A program made the position numbers and the translations under genes. A stretch of DNA of 64,000 nucleotides from Bacteroidia bacterium (lineage in GTDB: Bacteria > Bacteroidota > Bacteroidia > B-17B0 > Aurantibacillaceae), in the NCBI GenBank assembly GCA_044344665.1, contig JBIJCO010000015.1:812-64811 (forward strand), in the 5' to 3' direction. Under the pieces are notes generated by a model, which was not told the DNA's origin, did not search any database, and worked only from the letters and a program-made list of their open reading frames with translations. The first letter of the stretch is position 1, and each line of letters starts with the position of its first letter. Positions 22,481 through 46,345 of this stretch are shown one piece after another.

Positions 22481-24475
22481 TTATTTAATAATTTCTCTTC
22501 CTAATAATTTATTGACTCTTATTTTTAAAGAGTCAAGGTGTTTTAGGTGCTCTAAAACAATTAACGATTCCTCAAATGAAATTGTTTTAAGGCTTTCTCG
22601 TAATTGTACTATTTGTGAGTTTAGTTTTCTGCTTTTAAAACTGTATAAAGTTTTTTCCGCATCTTTCTTTGCCATTTCAATTTCGCTCGGAACAATTACG
22701 CCGTAATTAATCCATTTCTGACTTAATTCATTTTTATTAATTACATGGTTTATGGCAAAGCTGTTTATTATAGGGTCAGGTGAATATAAAAAATGATTTA
22801 TGTTTGGTAATTTATTATCCTTTAACTGATCAATGTAATCGTCTAAAACAGTTTTATGTAAAGGATTTTCAAAATTGATGTTATCTCGCCACAATTCAAA
22901 AATTATAAATTCACCTAAGGTAATTTCAATTTCCTGTTCAACATTGTTTTCATCTTCGGCTTGAACAGTAATTAATAAATTCCCATACTTTATTAAGGTA
23001 ACAAGTAAATTTTTTTCCTCTGCATCAAAATTAAATAGTTCGGTTTCATGTTTTACAGTTGTAATTAATTCGGGTTCAGAGTTTGATATTGTTAATTCCT
23101 TAGTATTATCCTCCGGTTTAATATTACCTGCTTTTTTTTCAGCACTTTTTCTACGAATTTTATTTACTTCCTGTTGAAGAATGGACTCTTCAATTTCCAT
23201 AATATTAGAACATTCTTTAATGTAAATGCTTCTAATAATATTATCAGGTATTAAAGCAATGCTATCAACAATATCTTTAATAACACCAGCGCGTTTAATA
23301 GGATCGTTTTGGGTTTGAGAGCTTAATTTTTTTGCTTTAAAATATAAAAAGTCTTGTGTGTTGTTGTCGAGATAATTTTTAAACTCATCGGCACTTACTT
23401 TTCTGCTAAACGAATCCGGGTCATCATTGTCAGGAAACATTAACAGTTTTACATTCATCCCTTCTTCCAAAATTAATGGTATAGCACGGTTGCTTGCTTT
23501 TTGTCCGGCTTCATCGCCATCATACAAAACAATAATGTTTTTTGTAAACCGATGAATTGATTTTATTTGTTCTACAGTTAATGATGTTCCGCTTGATGCC
23601 ACCACATTTTCGATGCCAGCCTGATGCATGGCAATAACATCCATGTAGCCTTCAACCAAATAACAACAATCGTTTTGCTGAATGGATTTTTTACCCATCC
23701 ACAAACCGTACAAGATCTTGCTTTTGTTGTATATCTCTGTTTCTGGACTATTAATGTATTTTGCAGTTTTTTTGTCGTTGCTTAATGTTCTTCCCCCAAA
23801 TGCAACTACACGGCCACCGTCATCATGTATCGGAAACATAACCCTTCCGGCGTAGCGGTCAAACAAGTCTGACTGAGTAATTTCGGTACCTTCCACATGG
23901 CGGTTACTCAAAATACACATGCCTGTTTTCGCCAAATATTTTGGTTGATAACCATTTTTTATGGCTTCAGCTGTAAATGCGTTTTTTTCTTCTAAACTAT
24001 AACCAAGTTGAAATTTTGAAATAATATCAGGTCTTAATTGTCTCTCAATAAAATACCCCAAACCTATAGACTTGCCTTCATCGGTATTAAACATGGTTTC
24101 GGTAAAATAACGCTGGGCATATTGCATAACAATGAGCATACTTTCGCGCTCTGTTTGCAGTTCTTTTTCCTGAGGCGTTATTTCGCGCTCTAAAATCTCT
24201 ATGTTGTATTTTTTTGCAAGCCACTTTAATGCTTCGGGGTAAGTGAGTTGCAAATGATCCATTATAAAATTTACAGAATTCCCCGATTTTCCGCAGCCAA
24301 AACATTTATAAATACCTTTTACAGGCGATACCGTAAATGAAGGTGTTTTTTCGCCATGAAATGGACATAAACCAAGCAAATTAGCACCGCGTTTTTTTAA
24401 GGTGATAAATTCTCCCAAAACATCTTCTACATGTGAAGCTTCTACTATTTTATCAATCGTTTCTCTGGGTATCAC
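22481..24475 (-). CDS. dnaG: DNA primase
   Basis: CPFHGEKTPSF...CFGC zinc-binding domain, KYINSPET, VEGYMDV and YDGD Toprim motifs, DPDS. GTG start. Confidence 0.97.
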   Translation of the reverse strand: MIPRETIDKIVEASHVEDVLGEFITLKKRGANLLGLCPFHGEKTPSFTVSPVKGIYKCFGCGKSGNSVNFIMDHLQLTYPEALKWLAKKYNIEILEREITPQEKELQTERESMLIVMQYAQRYFTETMFNTDEGKSIGLGYFIERQLRPDIISKFQLGYSLEEKNAFTAEAIKNGYQPKYLAKTGMCILSNRHVEGTEITQSDLFDRYAGRVMFPIHDDGGRVVAFGGRTLSNDKKTAKYINSPETEIYNKSKILYGLWMGKKSIQQNDCCYLVEGYMDVIAMHQAGIENVVASSGTSLTVEQIKSIHRFTKNIIVLYDGDEAGQKASNRAIPLILEEGMNVKLLMFPDNDDPDSFSRKVSADEFKNYLDNNTQDFLYFKAKKLSSQTQNDPIKRAGVIKDIVDSIALIPDNIIRSIYIKECSNIMEIEESILQQEVNKIRRKSAEKKAGNIKPEDNTKELTISNSEPELITTVKHETELFNFDAEEKNLLVTLIKYGNLLITVQAEDENNVEQEIEITLGEFIIFELWRDNINFENPLHKTVLDDYIDQLKDNKLPNINHFLYSPDPIINSFAINHVINKNELSQKWINYGVIVPSEIEMAKKDAEKTLYSFKSRKLNSQIVQLRESLKTISFEESLIVLEHLKHLDSLKIRVNKLLGREIIK

Positions 24476-37920: not shown

Positions 37921-37935
37921 CTACTTTCCGATACA
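37921..37935. repeat. att site, left copy (displaced duplicate of the mnmE 3' end)
   Basis: CTACTTTCCGATACA; minus strand reads TGT ATC GGA AAG TAG = C-I-G-K-stop. 13/15 identical to the right copy. Confidence 0.85.
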
Positions 37936-37996
37936 TAAAGTAACTAATTGACTTAAACATTTTATTTACAATGCTTTAAAAAAACAAAACACTTTT

Positions 37997-38018
37997 AAGG
38001 TACAAATAAGGTACAAAT
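37997..38018 (+). repeat. Tandem arm-type integrase-binding repeats, left end
   Basis: AAGGTACAAAT x2, 11-bp period, ~60 bp inside the left att core. Confidence 0.7.
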
Positions 38019-38076
38019 AAGAGTAAAAGTATTTTATTAAATGAGTTTTATCAATTTATTATTTATCAAAAATTAT

Positions 38077-38084
38077 TAGTTTTG
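38077..38084 (+). promoter_or_regulatory. Candidate -7 box for the cargo gene
   Basis: TAGTTTTG, 16 nt upstream of the ATG at 38101. Confidence 0.45.
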
Positions 38085-38100
38085 GTTTAAATATCAGATT

Positions 38101-38556
38101 ATGAAAAATAAATTATCGTTACTATTAATATTATTTGGCTTTTTATTTTTTTCAACAAATTCTATTAATGCACAAACAATAACTGAAAAACCCATTTATA
38201 AAGGAATTAATGGGCTTACAATTAGGGAATTAAAAAGTGGAGGTATCTATTTTAGCTACCAAAATCCTGAATATACAACAATAGTAGATATTGTTTCTTT
38301 TAATACTAGTTCGAAATTAAACGCTATTCAGCTTTTTGAAAAAGCAATAACCATTTTAGGAATGGAAAAAACAGATAAAGAACAACATATTATTGATAAT
38401 TTTGAAGGTGTTGAATTGGCTCGGTATGGGTTTTCACAAAAGCAAATTTCTTTATCAAATGGTAAAAATCGAGGTATTTATTTGACGTTAAAAGATTGTA
38501 ATAAAATAAAAGACGCTTTATCAGAATATCAATATATTCACCAATCTGATAATTAA
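38101..38556 (+). CDS. Hypothetical exported protein (element cargo)
   Basis: MKNKLSLLLILFGFLFFSTNSINAQ signal peptide; no family recognised; only element gene on the plus strand. Confidence 0.75.
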   Translation: MKNKLSLLLILFGFLFFSTNSINAQTITEKPIYKGINGLTIRELKSGGIYFSYQNPEYTTIVDIVSFNTSSKLNAIQLFEKAITILGMEKTDKEQHIIDNFEGVELARYGFSQKQISLSNGKNRGIYLTLKDCNKIKDALSEYQYIHQSDN

Positions 38557-38624
38557 AAACTTTTAAAGAAATTTCTTTGGTTGTTTTCGTTATTAAATAG
38601 TTTTGGGAATAAGAAACTTTATTT

Positions 38625-39320
38625 TCAAAATTTAAACTTATCAATTTCTAAAACTTCTGGCTGTGGTAAGGCTGTTTTTAAAATAGTTTCAATAGTATTC
38701 AGTTGTTCGGGGTTGAGGCGTTTTATTGTTTCCTGACTTAATACAGTCCCGTTTATTTGAATGTAGTTATTTTGGTTTTGTATCAAAGTATTTTTAGGGG
38801 CTTGCCCGTTATTCATAAAACCCATTACATTGAAATAAAGTTTGGCTGCTCCCGTGTCCCCATTTACGGCAAACTGAAATACCTTTGCCAAAACTTTAGA
38901 GGTCATAAACCTGAACTGTTCTATTTGTCCCAAATATTGAGGGGTGCTCGCATATTCCTTGAGGTGTTTATGTACTGTTTGTCGGCTCAACTCTGTTTTA
39001 TTAGCTATTTCCGTTTTGGTTGGCATACGTCCGTATTCCTTCATTAAAGTTGAAATTGCCCACGTTATTTGAATATGGTTACTTTCCCAAAGTTGGTTTT
39101 TAGTGGTGTCGCTTGTAATCGGTTCAATTTTTTTATAAAACTTATCCCTTTCTGTTCCTTTCAGCTTATTAAATCTTTCTGTAAGTATTTCCATTAAACG
39201 AGTGCTTTCTAATTCGCTTAATGGTTCTAGGTCGCTGGGTGTAATTTGTTCAAGTGAAAGTACTTTATTTATTTTAGTTTCGGTTTCTGTAAACTTTTGT
39301 AAACTCTTTTTGGTTATCAT
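38625..39320 (-). CDS. HTH protein, candidate small terminase subunit (TerS-like)
   Basis: HTH (PTKTEIANKTELSRQTVHKHL), then helical KVLAKVFQFAVNGDTGAAKLYF and a QNQNNYIQING tail, resembling phage small-terminase architecture. Starts 1 nt after the primase stop. CDS is secure; function is inferred. Confidence 0.5.
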   Translation of the reverse strand: MITKKSLQKFTETETKINKVLSLEQITPSDLEPLSELESTRLMEILTERFNKLKGTERDKFYKKIEPITSDTTKNQLWESNHIQITWAISTLMKEYGRMPTKTEIANKTELSRQTVHKHLKEYASTPQYLGQIEQFRFMTSKVLAKVFQFAVNGDTGAAKLYFNVMGFMNNGQAPKNTLIQNQNNYIQINGTVLSQETIKRLNPEQLNTIETILKTALPQPEVLEIDKFKF

Positions 39321-39321
39321 A

Positions 39322-40590
39322 TTAATTCAAATTTGTGGTTAATACTTGTTTCAATTTCTGTAATCGGTTGAGGTATGGTAAAAAGGTTCGTTTACCGTTG
39401 TTCGCTTTCAAGGTGGCAAGGTGGTTTTCAATGAATATGGAACAGTTAAATATTATTTCGGCTTGTTTGAGTTTCACGGGCTGGTTTGGTAATGTAATAC
39501 CTGTAAAATAGTTTTCAAGTTCGGTAATATCCTTTTCCCAGCTTTCAAGTTTTGGTTTTTCGGGTTTACTGAAATAGTAAACAGGTTCGGGTTGCTCAAA
39601 TGGTTTCACCTCAACCAATGGTCTAGCGTCTGGGGGTGTTTCGGTGGTTTCAGGTAGTGCAAACGCTTTGTAATCGTATTTTATTAAATAGTCGGCAAGG
39701 TCAAACCCTTGTTTCTTTTCGGCTTCGGTGGCTTTACGTTCCAGTAAATCGGAAACGGTAAAATTTGCAAGGTGTGAAAGTTCCTTTGCCTTGCTGTTCC
39801 ATTTATCAAACCCGTTGAGGTCGGGAAATAGCGTAATAGTTCGCCCTTTAAGTATACTGCACTTTTCAGCGTTTAGGTTAGTAAGACTGCCAACGGCAAC
39901 CCAAATAAACTGTGGTAAATAAACGCTGGCAATCACAGCCGTTTTTTCGCTTTCAACTATTGCAACGGGTTTTGTTTTATTAATTAGTAAGTGTTCACCA
40001 AACAAACATTGCCTTAACTCAAATTCAGGCTGTTTAATAGCTTTATGAACCCAGTTAATGTAATTGTATGGTTCTTTAACTCTTTTACCTGTGACGGGAC
40101 TGTAAAGCATTATTTTACCCGTTCTAACTTTACCCTGTGTATCTATTTGCCAAAATACCGTTGCCCCGTTCCAATACTTTGAGGCGGCAATAAAATAACG
40201 GCTTACTAGTTGGCTGGCAACCTCAACCTTGAATAGGTTAATAAGGAACTGTACAAAGCAGTTCGTTTCGTGTGCTTTCAGGCTGGCTTTAAATACCTCA
40301 ACGGGAATAAAAGAAACAGGCTTTGGTTGAGGTTTAACAGGTAGGGGCTTATAAGCTTTAGGTTGGGGTATATCAAATGAAATATTGTTATCCTGAAAAT
40401 ATTGTTTAGGGGTGTAATGGTTTCCACAATTACTTTCACGGTTGCACCTGCCAACGGTTGGGTGTATATGTTCGCCTGTTTCTTTATCAATGTAAAGTGA
40501 AAAGGTTTTATCCCTTTGCTGGCAAATGGGGCAACGGTAACGGGTATTTATTCCCTTGTATGGTTCTAATATGTATCTGTGTTCATTCAT
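39322..40590 (-). CDS. Toprim-type primase-like protein (DUF6371-like) with N-terminal zinc ribbon
   Basis: YRCPIC...GRCNRESNCG zinc-binding region; VFWQID...GKIMLY; LFGEHL; Toprim-like AIVESEKTA, LFPD, DLAD. Confidence 0.8.
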   Translation of the reverse strand: MNEHRYILEPYKGINTRYRCPICQQRDKTFSLYIDKETGEHIHPTVGRCNRESNCGNHYTPKQYFQDNNISFDIPQPKAYKPLPVKPQPKPVSFIPVEVFKASLKAHETNCFVQFLINLFKVEVASQLVSRYFIAASKYWNGATVFWQIDTQGKVRTGKIMLYSPVTGKRVKEPYNYINWVHKAIKQPEFELRQCLFGEHLLINKTKPVAIVESEKTAVIASVYLPQFIWVAVGSLTNLNAEKCSILKGRTITLFPDLNGFDKWNSKAKELSHLANFTVSDLLERKATEAEKKQGFDLADYLIKYDYKAFALPETTETPPDARPLVEVKPFEQPEPVYYFSKPEKPKLESWEKDITELENYFTGITLPNQPVKLKQAEIIFNCSIFIENHLATLKANNGKRTFLPYLNRLQKLKQVLTTNLN

Positions 40591-40603
40591 TTTTACCTCT
40601 TTA

Positions 40604-40658
40604 GTGTAACAGGTGTAACGTTTGTAACAGGGTGTTACAAGTGTTACAGGTGTTACAA
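40604..40658. repeat. Palindromic iteron-like array (putative replication origin)
   Basis: Six 9-bp units: GTGTAACAG, GTGTAACGT, TTGTAACAG, (G), GTGTTACAA, GTGTTACAG, GTGTTACAA. The halves form a 25-bp inverted repeat (21/25 match) around GGG and fill most of the helicase-primase gap. Confidence 0.8.
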
Positions 40659-41783
40659 TTTGTTTTGTTTATCTAAAATTCGTTTCGCTTGTTGGTGAGA
40701 AATACCCAGTTCAACCCCTATTTCTCGAAGGCTTCGCCCTTGCTGTTTTAGTTCGCTTACCTTTTCGTTTAGGTTTTCTTTATCCTTTTCGGTGTGCTGT
40801 TTCAGGTGTTCCCATTCCTTACCGAAATTCACAAACTCAAACATTAAGAAATTAAGAGGCTTATCAATTTGACAAACACAAACATTTTCAGCATCGTAAA
40901 TTTGTTCGGTGTTCCGTTGCTTAATTTGTTTCAGGTAGCGTAAATTTTTGTCGCTGTGGCTTTCACCTATTGAAAAGGAACTATCACAAAAGTTTATTAG
41001 CATCTTACTGCCTTGTAAATCATTTCGGGTAATTGGTTTTGATAAGTCCCTTTTTGGTGTGTGTGCAAGTGCCAAAATAGAAAGCCCGTATTTGTTTTTT
41101 AATGCTTTCAAATGTTTCATTAAAGGCAAAGCATCTTTAGCCTTTTCAGTTTCATTTTTGAGGTAAGTAAGGTTATCAATGATTAAAACTTTTGCCCCTG
41201 TTTCGGTAATGCTTCGTTCCAATGAATGGTTGAGGTAATCCTCAAAGGTTTGGGCTTCAGGTATGTTGGCATCGGGGTTTATTTCAACCCGAATAAAGTT
41301 GTTATCAAAGTTGTAATGCTGTTCAAACTTTATTGAATATCGGTTTTCAAATTGTTTGTCGCTTAACTCAAAATCAAAATACAAAATCGGTTGCTTTGGT
41401 GTTTCCAATTTAAAGCCCCGTATCTGTTCGCCCTTGCTTATACTGTTACCAATTTGCACGGCTAAAATTGACTTACCTAAATTGGTGTCGGCAAACAAAA
41501 TACATAGTTCACCCTCAAACCAAAATTCACCAAAAAGCATTTGCGGAATAGGTCGGGTTTTCGCCTGTTCAATCCAACGGCTGGCTGTTTTTACTGTGAA
41601 CAGTCCTTTACTTTCTTTGGCTTCATTGCCTTGCTTTAAAAGTTGTTCAGCTTCGGTTTTAATATCCTCAACTCCGATATTGTATTTATCCAATTCAAAC
41701 ACAGGGGTAATGGTGTTTAAATTTGTATCTTTGTTCCCGTCTTTAGTGCTTAACTTATTAGGGGTGTTGTTATGTTCCTGCAT
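40653..41783 (-). CDS. AAA_25/RecA-fold ATPase (putative replicative helicase) with C-terminal HTH
   Basis: Walker A variant FADTNLGKS, Walker B LIIDN, LAHTPK, DLQGSK, YLKQIKQRN; C-terminal GRSLREIGVELGISHQQAKRIL. Confidence 0.85.
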   Translation of the reverse strand: MQEHNNTPNKLSTKDGNKDTNLNTITPVFELDKYNIGVEDIKTEAEQLLKQGNEAKESKGLFTVKTASRWIEQAKTRPIPQMLFGEFWFEGELCILFADTNLGKSILAVQIGNSISKGEQIRGFKLETPKQPILYFDFELSDKQFENRYSIKFEQHYNFDNNFIRVEINPDANIPEAQTFEDYLNHSLERSITETGAKVLIIDNLTYLKNETEKAKDALPLMKHLKALKNKYGLSILALAHTPKRDLSKPITRNDLQGSKMLINFCDSSFSIGESHSDKNLRYLKQIKQRNTEQIYDAENVCVCQIDKPLNFLMFEFVNFGKEWEHLKQHTEKDKENLNEKVSELKQQGRSLREIGVELGISHQQAKRILDKQNKL

Positions 41784-41786
41784 AGC

Positions 41787-42113
41787 TTACCCCTTTTTAG
41801 TTTTACAATATTGTTCGGCTTCGCTGTCTGTTTCTGCCAACGTCCTTTTTCTGCCTTGCTTCAAATAATTGATTAACTCAACTTTTGAAAAGTAACAACG
41901 CTTTGAACGCTTCATTACTGGCAATTCGCCTTTACTTATTAAAGTGTAAACGGTGGGAACTGAAAGGCTCAAAAATTTAGCCGTGTCCTGAACTGTTAAA
42001 AGTTCGTCTGTTTCGAGTTGTTCGCCCTGCTCTTTAGATGTGTGTTTGAGGTCGAGCAATAAGGTTTCAATATTGTTTAACCTTGCCTCAATTAATTCAA
42101 ATGGATTATTCAT
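41787..42113 (-). CDS. Excisionase-like helix-turn-helix (HTH_17) protein
   Basis: ELLTVQDTAKFLSLSVPTVYTLISKGELP...RCYFSKVELINYL. ORF track starts at 42140 (TTG); the ATG at 42113 (MNNPFE) is more likely. Confidence 0.88.
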   Translation of the reverse strand: MNNPFELIEARLNNIETLLLDLKHTSKEQGEQLETDELLTVQDTAKFLSLSVPTVYTLISKGELPVMKRSKRCYFSKVELINYLKQGRKRTLAETDSEAEQYCKTKKG

Positions 42114-42163
42114 TTTGTACAAGTTTTTAATTACTTGCACAAATATTGGTTGGCTTAAAAGTG

Positions 42164-42190
42164 GGTAACTGGTTACAACTGGTTACAATC
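42164..42190. promoter_or_regulatory. GTTAC-core repeat cluster upstream of the xis-helicase-primase-TerS-like operon
   Basis: GGTAAC TG GTTAC palindrome plus tandem CTGGTTACAA x2 (10-bp period); same GTTACA core as the 40604-40658 array. Confidence 0.55.
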
Positions 42191-42191
42191 T

Positions 42192-42965
42192 TTATTGATA
42201 TTCATTTTCAAATAAGGTTTTCAATATTCTTATTTCATCAATAGCCCTTTGTTTGTTGTTATCTGACAAATGACTAATAACGCTTTCAAACAGTTTAATT
42301 TTATTCTTTAGCTTTTTAGGTGTACAATGTGTCGGCTTTCCTTTCCTGTTTGCTGTACTGGAATAGTATGAATAATCCTGAAACAATCCCTCACCTGAAT
42401 TTTTAGACGTGTACCCGTGTTTAGCTGCAATTTCCTTAGCGTTTCCCCTTGTTATTTGTAAACCTTCGTAAAAGTGAATAAGTGCAATTTGAGAAACTTT
42501 AAGTTTATCCGTTTTCGTTTCAGATTGTTGAGTTGTTAAGGCTTCGGGGTTGGTATTGTAGTATAAATAATCAATAGGTTGTTTATTAAATATTTCAATC
42601 CATTCAATTAATGTTTTTTCAAGCGTTGCTCTTAGTTCTGCTTTATAGTTTTGTGGGTTTAAATTTATACTTTCAAAAGTAGCTTTTAACCAATCTAAAG
42701 GGTTTCCGCCTGACTGCCTGTAATTATCAAATAATTCCCGTAAATATGAAACAACAGTTTCGTGGGTAAAATAATTATTTTTTAATTCTGTTTGTAAACT
42801 TGCTAAATCAAAATAATAAAGCTGCTCAATATGAATATCAGTTAATTCAAAATCGGGGTAATTATCAAACATTTCATTTACAGTTATTGGTTTTCCTTCA
42901 ATTCCTGTTTGATATTCAAAATTAAAAAGTAGCCCGTAAAAAGGTATATATTCTGAAACTTTCAT
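42192..42965 (-). CDS. Hypothetical protein between integrase and excisionase
   Basis: 257-aa ORF co-oriented with element genes; no family recognised. Confidence 0.75.
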   Translation of the reverse strand: MKVSEYIPFYGLLFNFEYQTGIEGKPITVNEMFDNYPDFELTDIHIEQLYYFDLASLQTELKNNYFTHETVVSYLRELFDNYRQSGGNPLDWLKATFESINLNPQNYKAELRATLEKTLIEWIEIFNKQPIDYLYYNTNPEALTTQQSETKTDKLKVSQIALIHFYEGLQITRGNAKEIAAKHGYTSKNSGEGLFQDYSYYSSTANRKGKPTHCTPKKLKNKIKLFESVISHLSDNNKQRAIDEIRILKTLFENEYQ

Positions 42966-42986
42966 TTATCTTTTATGCTTAGTAGG

Positions 42987-44129
42987 TTAAAAATCTAATT
43001 GTATTTTGTTGGCTGCTTCACGTTTGGTTTGGTCTATAATCTTTGCGTAAATCTGTGTGGTTTTTAGTTCACGGTGCCCCAGCATTTTAGAAACAGTATA
43101 AATATCCGTTCCCTTTGATAGTTGCAAGGTTGCGAAAGTGTGGCGGAAACAATGAAAGGTTATATCCTTTTCAATACCTGCAAGCCCTATCCATTTAGCA
43201 AGATGTTTATTTTCGTATGCTGAATAAGTAAGCCCCTCAAATACTTTGTCGCTGGGTTCTTTACGTTCACCCAATAAGCTAAAAGCTTGTTCAGAAATTG
43301 GCATCATTTCAACCCCTTTTGTTTTTTGTTGTTTAAACTGGATAAAATACCCGTTGCCTTCAATGTATTCCAATTCGCCCCAAACAAGATTTTTAATATC
43401 TGAAAACCTCAACCCTGTGAGGGCTGAAAATAGGGCTGCACGTTTCAATAAAGGGTTGTTACATTCAGTTTTTACAAGGCTGTTAAGTTCCTCAATAGTT
43501 AAAAAGTTTCTTTGTGTTTCTGCCTGTTTAATTGGTTGTATTTTACCATTCAGGTCGTTGGGTAAATACCCGTCTTTATAGGCTTGTTTTAAAGTTGCTT
43601 TCAGTTTATTGAAATAGGAAACGGCTGAATTTTGGGCAAGGGTTACTTTATTGCTCTTATTGCTTTTGGTAGTGAGTAAATACTCTTTGAACTCATTACA
43701 AAACTTTTCGTTGAGGTCGGCAAACTTTAAATTTCCATTTGTGAATGTTTCTAGGTAATTGTGTGCTGAAACCCAGTTATCGTGGTTACTTGCTTTACGT
43801 TTGTCAGCAAGGCTTTTAAAGTAGGTAACAAAATTTTGTTCGCCTAGCTCTTTAATCTTTAATTGTTCCTTTTCGTACCCTGTGTAAATTTCAGGTTTGT
43901 TTAAATGGTTTTCACGTTTCTGCCTTATTTGTTCAGCAAGTTGCAAAGTTTCTTTATTGCCTTGCTTATCAATAGGGTTCTTTGCCTTGTTAAAAAGGTA
44001 CAACCCTAAAAATTCCCTTCGGGTTGGTTCACCAGTTTTGGGGTGTGGAATAGGTGGGTAAAAATCTAAATACAAGCTTTGCCTGTTACCTGAAATTTCC
44101 TTTTGTCTTAACTTAACTTTTATTGCCAT
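42987..44129 (-). CDS. int: Tyrosine recombinase/site-specific integrase (Bacteroidota type with N-terminal arm-binding domain)
   Basis: N-terminal SLYLDFYPP...RREFLGLYL; catalytic R (LTGLRFSDI), HCFRH, LGH and TTQIY all intact. Confidence 0.96.
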   Translation of the reverse strand: MAIKVKLRQKEISGNRQSLYLDFYPPIPHPKTGEPTRREFLGLYLFNKAKNPIDKQGNKETLQLAEQIRQKRENHLNKPEIYTGYEKEQLKIKELGEQNFVTYFKSLADKRKASNHDNWVSAHNYLETFTNGNLKFADLNEKFCNEFKEYLLTTKSNKSNKVTLAQNSAVSYFNKLKATLKQAYKDGYLPNDLNGKIQPIKQAETQRNFLTIEELNSLVKTECNNPLLKRAALFSALTGLRFSDIKNLVWGELEYIEGNGYFIQFKQQKTKGVEMMPISEQAFSLLGERKEPSDKVFEGLTYSAYENKHLAKWIGLAGIEKDITFHCFRHTFATLQLSKGTDIYTVSKMLGHRELKTTQIYAKIIDQTKREAANKIQLDF

Positions 44130-44149
44130 TATCTTTTATGTTTTAGTAT

Positions 44150-44713
44150 TTAACTAAATAGTTTATCTATAAACGTTTTAGGAACGTATGCAAACCAGCC
44201 TTTTTTTATTTTAGGTATGCTGTTTCGTTTTATAAGGTTTTGTAAGGTTGTTTCTGAAATACCGTATTTGCTTTTTACTTCTGTAAAGTTGTAACAGTCT
44301 GCAATATCAAACTGCTTTTGTTCAGGTTGCTTTTCGGGTTGAGGTGTTCGGTTGGTTGGCTCTATAAATAGTTTGTCAAGGTCTGAACGCTTTACAATAG
44401 TTTTCTTTAATAAAATGTTTGTCGCTTTCAGCTTACCCGTATTGATAAGGTTGTAAACATTTTGTCGGGAACAGCCTATTAATTTTGAAACCTGTGTAAC
44501 GCTTAAAAATTCCTTTGCTTTTAGTTCCTCAATAGGTTGTTTTTTTATACGCTGTGTTTCTTTATTGCTTTGCTCAACCTTACCAGCCCTTAATCTTGCC
44601 TTGTAAGCCTTTTTACTGCAAGTATCACTACAATACTGGGTTACTGTGGTTCTTGCTGTGAACTCATTACCACAATGCTGGCAAATACGTTGTATCTTAA
44701 TATTTGAACTCAT
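44150..44713 (-). CDS. Zinc-finger + tandem excisionase-like HTH protein
   Basis: CQHCG...YCSDTC; first [24 protein letters not shown]; second [24 protein letters not shown]. Confidence 0.85.
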
Positions 44714-44775
44714 TTCGTGCTATTCTGTATTAAATTGTTTAAAAGTGTAAAATTTGTAAACTTAAAAAATGGGTT

Positions 44776-44827
44776 GAGGTACAAATTTGCCTTTCAACCC
44801 ATAGTAAGGTACAATAAAGGTACAAAT
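44776..44827 (+). repeat. Arm-type integrase-binding repeats, right end
   Basis: GAGGTACAAAT (44776), AAGGTACAATA (44806), AAGGTACAAAT (44817); same motif, orientation and 11-bp tandem period as the left-end pair. Confidence 0.7.
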
Positions 44828-44880
44828 ATTCAATAAAAAAACAACTATTAAAACAAAATAAACCTATCAGTTAAGGTATT

Positions 44881-44905
44881 AAAAAAGCCCTTAAATAGAG
44901 GGCTT
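44881..44905 (-). terminator. Element-supplied terminator just downstream of mnmE
   Basis: Minus strand AAGCCCT-CTATTTA-AGGGCTT followed by TTTT, 45 nt after the mnmE stop. Confidence 0.65.
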
Positions 44906-44950
44906 ATTATAGGTTTAGTATGGTTTTTGTGTTTGTTTGTTTTGTGGTGG

Positions 44951-44965
44951 TTATTTTCCGATACA
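44951..44965. repeat. att site, right copy (within mnmE last codons)
   Basis: TTATTTTCCGATACA; minus strand TGT ATC GGA AAA TAA = C-I-G-K-stop. Confidence 0.85.
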
Positions 44966-46345
44966 AAACTTAGAAAAAATATTACTTAGTAGGTCATCGG
45001 TGGTAACTTCACCGGTAATAAGCCCAATTTCTTCAAGGGCGTAGCGTATATCTAAGGCTAGTATATCGGTAACAATGTTTTGGTTTAATCCTTCTAACAC
45101 TTTGTTGAGTGCCGCATTTACATTTTTTAGCGAGTTGGCATGCCTTGCATTAGTTACAATAGTATCGGTTGCAGTTATCGAAGTTGAGTCGTATAAGCCA
45201 AGCAGTTTTTGTTTTAGCTCACTAATTTGCAAGTGTGTTTTTGCTGAAATAAACAGTATATCTTTAAAATCAGAAAACTCAGTTGTTAACTCAGAGCTAT
45301 TTTTTGAATCAATTTTATTGCCAACTAAAAGCAGTTGCGAGGTGCCAATATGTTCTTTTAATAATTCAATTTCATTTTTTAAATCGCCACTGCTTAGCTC
45401 GTTTACATCAAATAAATAAATAATAACTGCCGATTTTTTAATGGCTTCAAAGGCTTTATTTACACCAATTTGTTCAATAACATCGTTAGTGGTTCGTATG
45501 CCGGCAGTATCTATAAATCTAAACAATACGCCATCAATTGTAATTTCATCTTCAATGGTATCTCTGGTAGTACCGGCAATTTCACTAACGATTGCGCGCT
45601 CATCGTTTAATAGGGTATTAAGTAGCGTTGATTTTCCTGCATTTGGTTTTCCAATAATTGCAACCGGAATGCCATTTTTTATTACGTTACCTAATTCAAA
45701 GCTGCTAAGCAGATTTAAAACAATGGTATTAATTGAATGAACTAAATTTTTAAGTTCGTTTCTGTTTGCAAATTCAACATCTTCCTCACTAAAATCCAAT
45801 TCTAGTTCAATTAATGAAGCAAAATTAATTAGCTTTTCACGCAGTAGTTTTATTTTGTTACTGAAACCTCCCCGCATTTGTTTCATGGCTATTTCATGCG
45901 ATAGAGCAGAATTACTAGCAATTAAATCAGCAACGGCTTCGGCCTGACTTAAATCGAACTTGCCATTTAAAAAAGCGCGTAAGGTAAACTCTCCAGGTTC
46001 TGCCAGGCGTGCCCCCGAATTTAAAAACAACTGTAATAATTGTTGGATGATGTATGGAGAACCATGACACGATACCTCTGCGCAATCTTGTCCGGTAAAC
46101 GAATTTGGATTTTTAAAAATGCTTACTAAAACTTCGTCAATAATAATTTCTTTATTAATAATTAAACCAAAATGTAGGGTATGCGTTAAGCTATTTTTAA
46201 GTTTCTTTTTTTGAAGTGATTTTGAATAAAAATAAGTTTCAATTATTGTAAAGGCTTCAGGGCCGCTCAAACGAATAACTGCAATTGCCGAACTTCCATG
46301 CGCCGTTGCTAATGCAACAATGGTATCGTTGGTTTCAAATTTCAT
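44951..46345 (-). CDS. mnmE: tRNA uridine-5-carboxymethylaminomethyl(34) synthesis GTPase MnmE (TrmE)
   Basis: DTIVALAT, EPGEFTLRAFLNGK, GKPNAGKST, GTTRD, DTAG, NKID, terminal FSKFCIGK. Confidence 0.98.
   Translation of the reverse strand: MKFETNDTIVALATAHGSSAIAVIRLSGPEAFTIIETYFYSKSLQKKKLKNSLTHTLHFGLIINKEIIIDEVLVSIFKNPNSFTGQDCAEVSCHGSPYIIQQLLQLFLNSGARLAEPGEFTLRAFLNGKFDLSQAEAVADLIASNSALSHEIAMKQMRGGFSNKIKLLREKLINFASLIELELDFSEEDVEFANRNELKNLVHSINTIVLNLLSSFELGNVIKNGIPVAIIGKPNAGKSTLLNTLLNDERAIVSEIAGTTRDTIEDEITIDGVLFRFIDTAGIRTTNDVIEQIGVNKAFEAIKKSAVIIYLFDVNELSSGDLKNEIELLKEHIGTSQLLLVGNKIDSKNSSELTTEFSDFKDILFISAKTHLQISELKQKLLGLYDSTSITATDTIVTNARHANSLKNVNAALNKVLEGLNQNIVTDILALDIRYALEEIGLITGEVTTDDLLSNIFSKFCIGK

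Follow-up and report, generated by a model that had tools for sequence, protein, structure and literature searches.

A 7,030-bp integrative element at the 3′ end of mnmE represents a Bacteroidota-wide family with a TerS-like protein and is a candidate phage satellite

Introduction

How might a genetic element of only seven kilobases, with no recognisable transfer genes, come to be integrated at the same site in distantly related bacteria? The question is raised by a locus in a 64,000-nucleotide stretch of a contig from a Bacteroidia bacterium (JBIJCO010000015.1), and we refer to this whole stretch as the window. The original prediction made for the locus was that of a minimal, replication-competent satellite that hijacks phages rather than being mobilised by a relaxase. 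The account that we tentatively prefer, at slightly less than even confidence, is that the locus is a site-specific integrative element of a family found throughout Bacteroidota, whose TerS-like protein, here called P7, marks the element DNA for a helper that is likeliest to be a phage terminase.

An intact element at the end of mnmE

Two exact copies of the 11-nt core TTTCCGATACA (37925–37935 and 44955–44965) bound an intact element of 7,030 bp, whereas only 0.07 copies of this sequence would be expected by chance in the 64-kb window. This spacing is as originally predicted, although the left core had been placed at 37921 and begins at 37925. The right core (attR) lies inside the final codons of the target gene mnmE, which codes for a tRNA modification GTPase (44951–46345, minus strand). 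It reads TGT ATC GGA AAA TAA, encoding CIGK and a stop, and the element therefore restores mnmE by rebuilding its 3′ end. The left core (attL) and its flanking bases read TGT ATC GGA AAG TAG on the minus strand, which is the displaced original end of mnmE (again CIGK and a stop) and matches the attP junction of a circular relative, L001. The mnmE ending is thus kept at both junctions. The same gene adjoins the relatives in eight other loci, and the insertion target is the conserved, near-universal CIGK-coding 3′ end of mnmE.

Internal to the cores are 2.4 copies of the left arm repeat TAAGGTACAAA (37996–38021, plus strand), presumed to be integrase arm-type sites, and, on the right, three copies of AGGTACAAW located by motif search (44777–44828, plus strand). 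The 64-kb window has six copies of AGGTACAAW, of which five fall in these two arms and share one orientation (37998, 38009, 44777, 44807 and 44818). Downstream of mnmE, the element supplies a terminator-like hairpin with a T-run (44885–44905, minus strand) that is conserved in relatives. The GC content of the element core is 0.36–0.41, against 0.28–0.33 in the flanks.

All eight open reading frames of the element are intact, and the core genes all lie on the minus strand. The one nearest mnmE encodes a 187-aa protein with a Zn-ribbon and two HTH_17 domains (44150–44713), homologous to the HTH protein that precedes int in a Tn4555-like element. It is followed by a 380-aa tyrosine integrase with Arm-DNA-bind_5, Phage_int_SAM_5 and Phage_integrase domains (42987–44129), and then by a 257-aa protein of unassigned function, X257 (42192–42965), in a hypervariable slot that holds unrelated proteins of 193–599 aa in relatives. 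A gap with 2.2 tandem copies of AACTGGTTAC (42167–42188), possibly an operator, precedes a string of four genes. These encode an excisionase-family HTH_17 protein of 117 aa recognised by its domain matches (41787–42140), a 376-aa AAA_25/DnaB_C-like helicase with a Walker A GKS motif and a C-terminal HTH that we propose as an initiator-helicase (40653–41783), a 422-aa primase-like protein with Zn_ribbon_16, DUF6371 and DUF6965 domains (39322–40590), and P7, a 231-aa helical, winged-HTH, TerS-like protein (38625–39320). P7 is the last core gene and starts 1 nt after the stop of the primase-like gene.

A single cargo gene on the opposite, plus strand (38101–38556) encodes a 151-aa protein with an N-terminal signal-like sequence, predicted to be of secreted type. 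It has no family match in Pfam, PHROGs or NCBIfam, and a copy that is 86% identical is present in L001. Domain matches thus agree with the gene list first read from the locus, which comprised an intact integrase, two xis-like HTH genes, a helicase, a coupled HTH gene and one opposite-strand cargo gene. Equally in line with that reading, the element has no family match to relaxase, T4SS, capsid, tail or lysis proteins in the same three databases.

Excision, replication and spread

Close relatives have been assembled as circles of 7.1–7.25 kb with the predicted attP junction, and close relatives also occur in integrated form, at mnmE, in hosts that are only distantly related. In L001, a circular contig whose P7 is 93% identical to that of the window, the junction joins the right end of the window element to the core and the left end. 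The same 7,189-bp circle was recovered from two samples, with terminal overlaps of 127 and 55 nt; a circle of 7,106 bp is represented by two contigs, a fourth contig, 7,097 bp long, shows circular permutation, and another relative, L009, also carries an attP junction. The element almost certainly integrates and excises, and excision would be carried out by the integrase together with the HTH_17 proteins.

The architecture recurs widely. About 990 clusters make up the P7 family, which spans more than 100 species of Bacteroidota and occurs in metagenome-assembled genomes from lakes, wastewater, soil and gut. Its carriers include such genomes and isolates of several classes, among them cultured Pontibacter, Chryseobacterium, Elizabethkingia, Mucilaginibacter and Segetibacter. 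This large family is apparently undescribed. Cargo in relatives includes an MmeI-type RM system, PRTase-CE/NADAR and a Piwi-domain protein.

One might nevertheless suppose that the locus is what is left of a Tn4555-like mobilizable transposon after it lost mob, decayed and became immobile. The absence of a relaxase would fit, as would the depth of the element in the source samples, which equals that of its flanks. However, eight intact reading frames, identical att cores, the recurrence of the P7 architecture on the scale just given and the circular relatives with attP make this explanation highly improbable.

Between the helicase and primase-like genes lies the palindromic iteron array that had been noticed originally (40604–40657), which consists of three TGTAACA units followed by three TGTTACA units with a 9-nt period. 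A TGTAACA array is confined to members whose helicase shares 72% identity or more with that of the window, regardless of the identity of P7 or the primase, and at this site other helicase types have arrays of GTTTGCAA or of CCTTTTCGT/AAGGACAAT. Since each helicase type has its own array in the same place, helicase and iterons form one exchangeable module, and we propose that the iterons are the helicase's cognate origin. The neighbouring gene had been taken for a Toprim primase. Its product matches no Toprim model in Pfam but DUF6371 instead, and we retain the primase-like assignment because of the Zn-ribbon, the conserved acidic motifs VESEKTA, FPD and GxDLAD, and a similarity of 32% identity to the ‘DNA primase/helicase’ of a crAss-like phage. 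The helicase, through its HTH, would bind the iterons and, with the primase-like protein, replicate the excised circle. It is very likely that the element replicates itself.

A relative of Tn4555-type mobilizable transposons

Transfer is a different matter. With no transfer machinery in its gene set, the element would need a helper, and we judge that it is probably helper-dependent. We examined its ancestry by comparison with a Tn4555-type element, the 10,057-bp cfxA-bearing circle CP103138.1. Both have a circular intermediate, and both have the order HTH protein (29.5% identity), tyrosine integrase (35%), variable gene, excisionase (27%), AAA ATPase (43%) and DUF6371 protein (40.6%). On this gene order and similarity, the P7 family and the Tn4555-type mobilizable transposons are sisters, and the backbone of the element derives from a conjugatively mobilized lineage. 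NBU1-type elements, which integrate in the 3′ end of tRNA-Leu and encode IntN1, Orf2/2x/3, PrmN1 and MobN1, would resemble it in integrase family and in having a primase-like gene, which NBU1 needs for excision.

Two features set the P7 family apart from Tn4555. Directly after the DUF6371 gene, CP103138.1 encodes a 467-aa Mob relaxase and a second Tn4555-type branch encodes a Mob_Pre relaxase, whereas the P7 family has P7 in that slot; and where CP103138.1 has a 3-nt gap between helicase and primase, the P7 family has its iteron array. Tn4555-type elements, which a conjugative transposon mobilises, are also defined by a Mob relaxase of their own with an adjacent oriT, a combination that we did not find here. 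Furthermore, integration of the present element is highly specific for the mnmE 3′ end, in contrast to the low specificity of Tn4555 (PMC5704250). The original prediction had held that mob or relaxase genes in relatives would count against a satellite, and in part they do, since the nearest characterised relatives, of Tn4555 type, have Mob in the P7 slot. There is no relaxase among the called genes of the P7-bearing relatives and none that recurs among the 131 open reading frames downstream of P7 in about 75 loci.

This ancestry invites the proposal that the element hitches on conjugation without a relaxase of its own (‘iOriT’-type), such that, once it has excised, its oriT is acted on by the relaxase and T4SS of a helper, namely a conjugative element or IME resident in the same Bacteroidota cell. 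P7 would then be an oriT-binding relaxosome accessory or an unrecognised relaxase that has replaced Mob. A category of integrative elements with just an oriT is recognised (PMC11389934), the syntenic, homologous backbone places P7 exactly where Mob stands, and in one subclade a conserved non-coding motif, AAAGTTTCTTATT, directly follows P7 (38608–38620, minus strand, just past the P7 stop). It is kept there in six independent relatives, and seven of its eight occurrences in 2.9 Mb sit just downstream of P7, although it is not universal in the P7 family. The pattern of spread points the same way. Element modules are 75–95% identical between hosts whose MnmE proteins are only 49–64% identical and which belong to several Bacteroidota classes, a breadth that is typical of conjugation and unusual for phage-borne transfer, and that fits conjugation at least as well as transfer by phages. 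Against the proposal, P7 has no HUH, Mob_Pre or other relaxase signature or family match in Pfam, PHROGs or NCBIfam, and TerS is the one annotated similarity that it shows consistently. In the two Mob-bearing relatives the region that precedes mob has no similarity to the element, and we found no T4SS or conjugative-element gene within the 64-kb window. We regard conjugative hitching as a serious alternative, less likely than the preferred reading and clearly likelier than decay.

P7 as a TerS-like protein

The preferred reading, in which P7 marks DNA for a phage terminase, depends on what kind of protein P7 is. Among 125 diverse family members, 67 match the TerS family phrog_24579 (best E 5.6e-9; the P7 of the window itself, E 8.5e-4), and further TerS families are matched as well (phrog_2538, phrog_141 and phrog_606). 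A model from a deep alignment (pLDDT 89.7) has an HTH (residues 102–125) followed by long helices (127–166) and a short beta hairpin (strands 187–194), with an extra N-terminal helical domain of 95 aa. A small terminase subunit is expected to have a DNA-binding HTH, N-terminal or central, then a helical region for oligomerisation and a beta segment at the C terminus. In a Foldseek search of BFVD its top match is a ‘DNA-packaging protein small subunit’ (E 5.6e-5), with TM-scores to TerS models that are low (0.28–0.35), and many of the lower named matches are TerS; a search of the PDB with the first model returned nothing significant. P7 is thus moderately TerS-like. The suggestion of a TerS-like last core gene has stood in this respect. 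Against packaging by phages stand the lesser matches to initiator families described below and tblastn searches with P7 and two divergent homologues, which found no homologue in 50,697 phage genomes. P7 is also absent from long IMG/VR contigs with related primases, and the four IMG/VR entries found, L009 among them, are marker-based listings rather than evidence of virions. The preferred reading is further weakened by the source samples, where element and flanks have equal depth and neither an attP nor an attB contig turned up.

A further alternative is that the element is an integrative, plasmid-like episome without dedicated transfer, which switches between integrated and circular states and spreads rarely through vesicles, transformation or generalised transduction, with P7 as a winged-HTH protein for replication, helicase loading or regulation. 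P7 always lies directly 3′ of the primase gene, whether of DUF6371 or BT4734_N/PriCT_2 type; P7 and the iterons are precisely what separates the family from Tn4555; and P7 is highly conserved across different helicase modules, as would be expected of a protein whose partner belongs to the host's own conserved replication machinery. In addition, circles dominate several assemblies, and phage replication-initiator (O-like, Rep) or DnaD-like families are matched by 7–19 of the 125 P7 members. These matches, however, are weaker and far less frequent than those to TerS, no initiator is among the top 50 structural matches of P7 in BFVD, and the iterons track the helicase rather than P7. The wide and recent spread across classes also requires an efficient transfer route. 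We consider such an episome a serious alternative too, a little less probable than conjugative hitching.

Because a TerS-like protein is found where the cousins of the element carry a relaxase, the element may be a phage satellite. Under the preferred reading, the winged-helix protein P7 would mark element DNA for the DNA-translocating machine of a helper. The likeliest such machine is a phage terminase, and it would package the DNA as concatemers, in the manner of minimal satellites. Packaging through P7 is plausible, but we hold it tentatively and below even confidence. What has stood of the original prediction is a minimal, intact element without a relaxase, competent for excision and replication as judged by the attP circles of relatives and the helicase-cognate iterons; its phage-hijacking component is a tentative proposal.

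Comparison with known phage satellites

The element resembles PICIs/SaPIs in its integrase gene and xis-type HTH gene, and in a replication module that pairs an exchangeable initiator-helicase with its cognate iteron origin. The core likewise closes with a terS-like gene, after which accessory or defence cargo follows. As in those islands, integration is site-specific and the target is restored; the integrase, att sites and excised circles are all found, the circles in relatives, and the primase/helicase and iteron origin correspond in gene and iteron content, with a function that is predicted. In contrast to PICIs/SaPIs, the element is half their size and known here from sequence alone, and its integrase, primase and helicase families are of Bacteroidota/Tn4555 type. 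Among its genes, of which X257 is unassigned, we found no cI/Stl-like master repressor or divergent regulatory switch, and none is recognisable as serving capsid redirection, capsid size or packaging interference.

PICMIs, the minimalist satellites of Vibrionaceae that are packaged as concatemers (PMC10803314), are likewise very small and free of capsid-remodelling genes, with a core of integrase, AlpA/excisionase-type HTH and primase. A DNA motif seems to be all that they require for mobilization (PMC11389934). The resemblance is architectural only, since PICMIs adjoin fis in Vibrionaceae and have an int–alpA–primase core, whereas the present element is integrated in the mnmE 3′ end of a Bacteroidota chromosome and its family has a separate helicase, iterons and P7 gene. 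VEIMEs and tycheposons are marine virion-encapsidated or integrase–primase elements (PMC9618062, PMC11876622). Compared by description only, they are similar as small integrase–primase/helicase elements with variable cargo that form concatemers or circles, and some have terS homologues or occur in Flavobacteria. VEIMEs, however, are defined by recovery from virus particles, and P7-family elements are known here as sequences.

Significance

It is possible, though we would not yet call it probable, that this element is the founding example of a Bacteroidota-wide family of phage satellites, descended from conjugatively mobilized transposons by exchanging Mob for a TerS-like protein and adding a helicase–iteron replicon. 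To our knowledge, no satellite has been characterised in Bacteroidota. If the P7 family is packaged by phages, this phylum would gain its first defined satellite family. The family would also offer a clean case in which a single-gene exchange changed the type of helper, with a TerS-like gene in place of Mob and the integrase–xis–helicase–primase backbone conserved. Such an origin, if true, would document a hitcher's switch from conjugative to viral helpers and open satellite biology in Bacteroidota. Several cultured strains carry members of the P7 family, and therefore the identity of the mobilising helper is directly testable. Even without phage packaging, the family is abundant, targets a near-universal gene end and carries defence-type cargo in relatives, and it offers a compact, broad-host-range toolkit of integrase/attP and replicon for Bacteroidota genetics.

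An integrative element at the 3' end of mnmE

The element is bounded by an exact 11-nt direct repeat, TTTCCGATACA, whose two copies (37925-37935 and 44955-44965) lie 7,030 bp apart and for which the chance expectation is 0.07 copies per window. The right copy falls within the final codons of mnmE (minus strand, 44951-46345), whose end reads TGT ATC GGA AAA TAA. On the same strand, the left copy gives TGT ATC GGA AAG TAG, such that CIGK-stop is encoded at both. Such a pair of ends marks an element that has integrated into the 3' end of a gene and brings a substitute for the end it displaces. Five of the six copies of AGGTACAAW in the 64-kb window sit inside the element ends, all in the same orientation. 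A terminator-like hairpin (AAGCCC...GGGCTTTTTT; 44885-44905, minus strand) lies just downstream of the rebuilt mnmE stop, and the element thus gives its target both a new stop codon and a putative terminator. The hairpin is kept beside the core in relatives, including loci L001, L005 and L009, which suggests that integration swaps the 3' end and the terminator of the target gene.

GC content is 0.36-0.41 within the element versus 0.28-0.33 outside, and the flanks carry ordinary chromosomal genes (TamB, an AsmA-like protein, DnaG, UvrA, photolyases and an MFS transporter). Neither Rfam nor a tRNA scan revealed any RNA gene in the window. A third exact copy of the core lies within the host dnaG gene (23826-23836, minus strand); it is probably there by chance, although it could serve as a secondary site.

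A backbone shared with Tn4555-type elements

Counted from mnmE on the minus strand, the first gene encodes a 187-aa protein with a Zn-ribbon and two HTH_17 domains. Next come the genes for a tyrosine integrase (380 aa; Arm-DNA-bind_5, SAM_5 and catalytic domains), X257 (257 aa, no family match), an excisionase-family HTH_17 protein (117 aa), an AAA_25/DnaB_C-like ATPase with an HTH at its C terminus (376 aa) and a protein that combines Zn_ribbon_16, DUF6371 and DUF6965 domains (422 aa). The gene for P7, a helical HTH protein of 231 aa, starts 1 nt past the stop of the last of these. A 62-nt gap after the ATPase gene holds three copies of TGTAACA and then three of TGTTACA at 9-nt spacing. The sole gene on the opposite strand encodes a 151-aa secreted-type cargo protein.

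This gene content is as originally predicted, and no relaxase, T4SS, capsid, tail or lysis family was matched in the element. The label 'Toprim primase' alone needs qualifying: no Toprim model matched the 422-aa protein, whereas the host DnaG in the same window does match one. Its Zn-ribbon, conserved acidic motifs and 32% identity to a crAss-like phage 'DNA primase/helicase' suggest that the DUF6371 protein is primase-like. Searches of PDB sequences by phmmer with the primase-like, helicase and X257 proteins found nothing, and PADLOC gave only generic HTH matches for six element proteins. The 51-nt gap between the X257 and xis-like genes contains a perfect tandem repeat, AACTGGTTAC x2.2 (42167-42188), which also scores as a hairpin and could serve as operator or promoter element for the string of xis, helicase, primase and P7 genes.

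The nearest characterised relatives are Tn4555-type elements. CP103138.1, a 10,057-bp circular molecule of this type from Bacteroides fragilis, carries in order an AAA ATPase, a DUF6371 protein, a mobilization protein, cfxA, an HTH protein, an integrase, a 'transposase' and an excisionase. Five of its proteins are homologous and syntenic to those of the window (HTH protein 29.5%, integrase 35%, excisionase 27%, AAA ATPase 43% and DUF6371 protein 40.6% identity). However, its Mob gene lies at the exact position of P7, and it has no iteron gap. Similarly, in L113, a locus from another branch, the gene after DUF6371 encodes a Mob_Pre relaxase. Given this synteny and the occupation of the Mob slot by P7, we place the family alongside Tn4555-type IMEs as a sister group that has P7 in exchange for Mob and, in addition, a helicase-iteron unit. 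At about 75 loci, the 6 kb downstream of P7 contain 131 ORFs, among which no relaxase family is recurrent, and no relaxase was found in the called genes of the relatives.

Five 'Bacteriophage sp.' GenBank records of 6-13 kb from human faeces (MT837912.1, MT836643.1, MT836828.1, MT839118.1 and MT836838.1) encode DUF6371 proteins 39-45% identical to that of the window and lack P7; possibly they are Tn4555-like elements that were submitted as phages.

An exchangeable helicase-array unit

The TGTAACA/TGTTACA array is confined to, and present in all of, the loci with a helicase at least 72% identical to that of the window; in these, P7 identity is 50-77% and primase identity 49-86%. It is missing from loci whose P7 is 83-92% identical but whose helicase differs. 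At the equivalent place, elements with a 401-423-aa helicase carry GTTTGCAA repeats, and those with a DUF3987 helicase carry CCTTTTCGT/AAGGACAAT repeats. Because array type tracks helicase type, the helicase, which has an HTH of its own, and the array form one exchangeable unit, in parallel with the rep-ori modules of SaPIs. This pattern argues for the array as a putative origin or as the operator of the helicase. It also argues against P7 as an iteron-binding initiator, a reading that we reject since the iterons follow the helicase type.

P7 and its resemblance to small terminase subunits

The original prediction called the last core gene TerS-like. Alone, the P7 of the window gives a weak TerS signal (phrog_24579, E 8.5e-4). 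Among 125 diverse members of its family, 67 match this TerS family (best E 5.6e-9), and other small-terminase PHROGs are matched by 18 (phrog_2538), 11 (phrog_141) and three (phrog_606). A family of unannotated function, phrog_3502, is matched by 100 of the 125, and phage replication-initiator or DnaD-like families by 7-19. A deep-alignment model (pLDDT 89.7) predicts a 95-aa helical N-domain, an HTH at residues 102-125, long helices up to residue 166, a short beta hairpin and a terminal helix. The best BFVD match of this model is a 'DNA-packaging protein small subunit' (E 5.6e-5, probability 1.0, 151 columns), with low TM-scores of 0.28-0.35; many of the lower named matches are TerS proteins, and none of the top 50 is an initiator. 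A first, shallow model gave nothing below E 0.27 with Foldseek against the PDB, and the family profile found only generic HTH matches among PDB sequences.

We give a TerS-like fold or ancestry of P7 slightly better than even odds. That P7 acts in phage packaging is a more tentative proposal, which we place somewhat short of an even chance. By tblastn, neither P7 nor its divergent homologues P0269 and P0255, the latter two at E up to 1, matched any of 50,697 phage records or 72,556 plasmids. A scan of IMG/VR with the single P7 protein found nothing and one with the P7 alignment found one locus; none of the long IMG/VR contigs with related primases encodes P7.

In some homologues (P0132, P0145 and P0178), the whole TerS-like unit is tandemly duplicated within a polypeptide of 309-370 aa. 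Distant homologues (43-50% identity) at Mucilaginibacter loci, including L062, L070 and L043, lie beside housekeeping genes (aminotransferase, histidine kinase and ABC permease), and the integrase-helicase-primase backbone is missing upstream. They might represent remnants, domesticated copies or parts of an element with another gene order.

Six independent elements, which between them have three helicase types, contain the motif AAAGTTTCYTATT (often GGAAAGTTTCCTATTTCCCGA) 5-120 nt past the stop of P7 (window 38608-38620; L001 4640, L002 7077, L003 10743, L009 4088 and L012 10701). Seven of the eight occurrences of this motif in 2.9 Mb sit just after P7, and it remains there where cargo separates it from the arm sites. 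We consider it a candidate cis site (pac, oriT or terminator), although not one universal in the family. At 84 loci, a search by k-mers for a motif common to all regions downstream of P7 returned AT-rich words only, and words shared between the upstream-of-mob regions of two Mob-bearing relatives and six P7-type elements were at chance level.

A large and mobile family

P7 has 759 close homologues, and about 990 clusters (50% identity) emerge from a sensitive search. Among GTDB species representatives, 105 P7 loci were located in MAGs and isolates, with carriers in Saprospiraceae, Cyclobacteriaceae, Bacteroidales, Chitinophagaceae, Pontibacter, Mucilaginibacter, Chryseobacterium, Elizabethkingia, Epilithonimonas and Segetibacter; eight more distinct loci adjoin mnmE. 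Cultured carriers include Pontibacter burrus BT327, Pontibacter sp. HSC-36F09, Chryseobacterium sp. SIMBA_029 and SW-1, Elizabethkingia sp. YR214, Segetibacter aerophilus NBRC 106135 and several type strains of Mucilaginibacter. Literature searches turned up no description of this large family, which is apparently undescribed. The '10K genomic island' of Riemerella anatipestifer was dismissed as a member on its Fic and AntA/AntB content and tRNA-Arg site, and the 'Charybdis' elements are archaeal and unrelated.

Several relatives were assembled as circles. Contig L001 (P7 93% and cargo gene 86% identical) is circularly permuted, its split integrase ORF joins in frame, and its junction consists of the right end of the window element, the core and the left end, as predicted for attP. 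An attP junction is likewise present in L009, from IMG/VR. A 7,189-bp circle was recovered from two samples (L092 and L093; terminal overlaps of 127 and 55 nt), L094 and L095 represent a 7,106-bp circle, and a 7,097-bp JGI contig is also circularly permuted. At the level of assembled sequence, these relatives prove that the family is mobile, and the window element is a real, intact and very probably active member. In its source samples, element depth equals flank depth and no attP or attB contig was found, which marks it as quiescent there.

The attP region of L094 (2008-2490) and L095, members of a sister lineage with a 417-aa integrase and a DUF3987 helicase, holds a tRNA 3' fragment, which suggests that, besides mnmE, the family also targets a tRNA gene and so has two target types or more. 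In sequencing run X3, a low-depth contig joins position 44968 (right end and core) to 37998 (left arm repeats) via 38 unmatched letters; this joint is arranged as an attP junction from a related element would be. In runs X1 and X2, the source lake metagenomes, the N-terminal region of the primase gene (40174-40507) has 2.5-fold the depth of the rest, and a contig variant in which 11 nt replace 44142-44364 encodes a one-HTH version of the 187-aa protein, like those of L012, L031 and L050. It follows that several related elements co-exist in the same community.

Cargo on the P7 side of relatives (L007/L008 11286-17516, L035 3787-5847 and L003 11166-12333) appears to be defence-related and comprises a 1,066-aa MmeI-type RM enzyme, PRTase-CE and NADAR, a Piwi-domain (pAgo-like) protein and three tandem GIY-YIG genes.

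Route of transfer

The original prediction, a minimal phage-hijacking satellite, is borne out in part. A TerS-like gene occupies the slot of the transfer-specificity gene, the element is probably a self-amplifying replicon and has no relaxase, and relatives carry defence-type cargo (MmeI-type RM, PRTase-CE/NADAR and a Piwi protein). In size and in its circular or concatemer-compatible assemblies, the family resembles PICMIs and VEIMEs (PMC10803314, PMC9618062). However, the ancestry is conjugative, there is no Stl-type regulator and the IMG/VR entries are marker-based calls rather than evidence of virions. Furthermore, modules 75-95% identical are shared between hosts whose MnmE proteins are 49-64% identical, a breadth closer to the broad range of conjugation than to typical phage ranges. 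Mobilization in trans by conjugation is a serious rival, since integrative elements relying on oriT alone are a recognised class (PMC11389934). Mob genes in relatives, which the original prediction had set against a satellite, are present in the nearest characterised relatives but in no P7-bearing member. As a third reading, the element might be an integrative plasmid with P7 serving the replicon, given the constant position of P7 after the primase gene in elements of any primase type.

Life as a phage satellite is, in our view, the single most likely mode of transfer, albeit with less than half of the probability behind it. The element represents either an offshoot of Tn4555-type IMEs that is replicative and has no relaxase or, if packaging were shown, a new satellite family.
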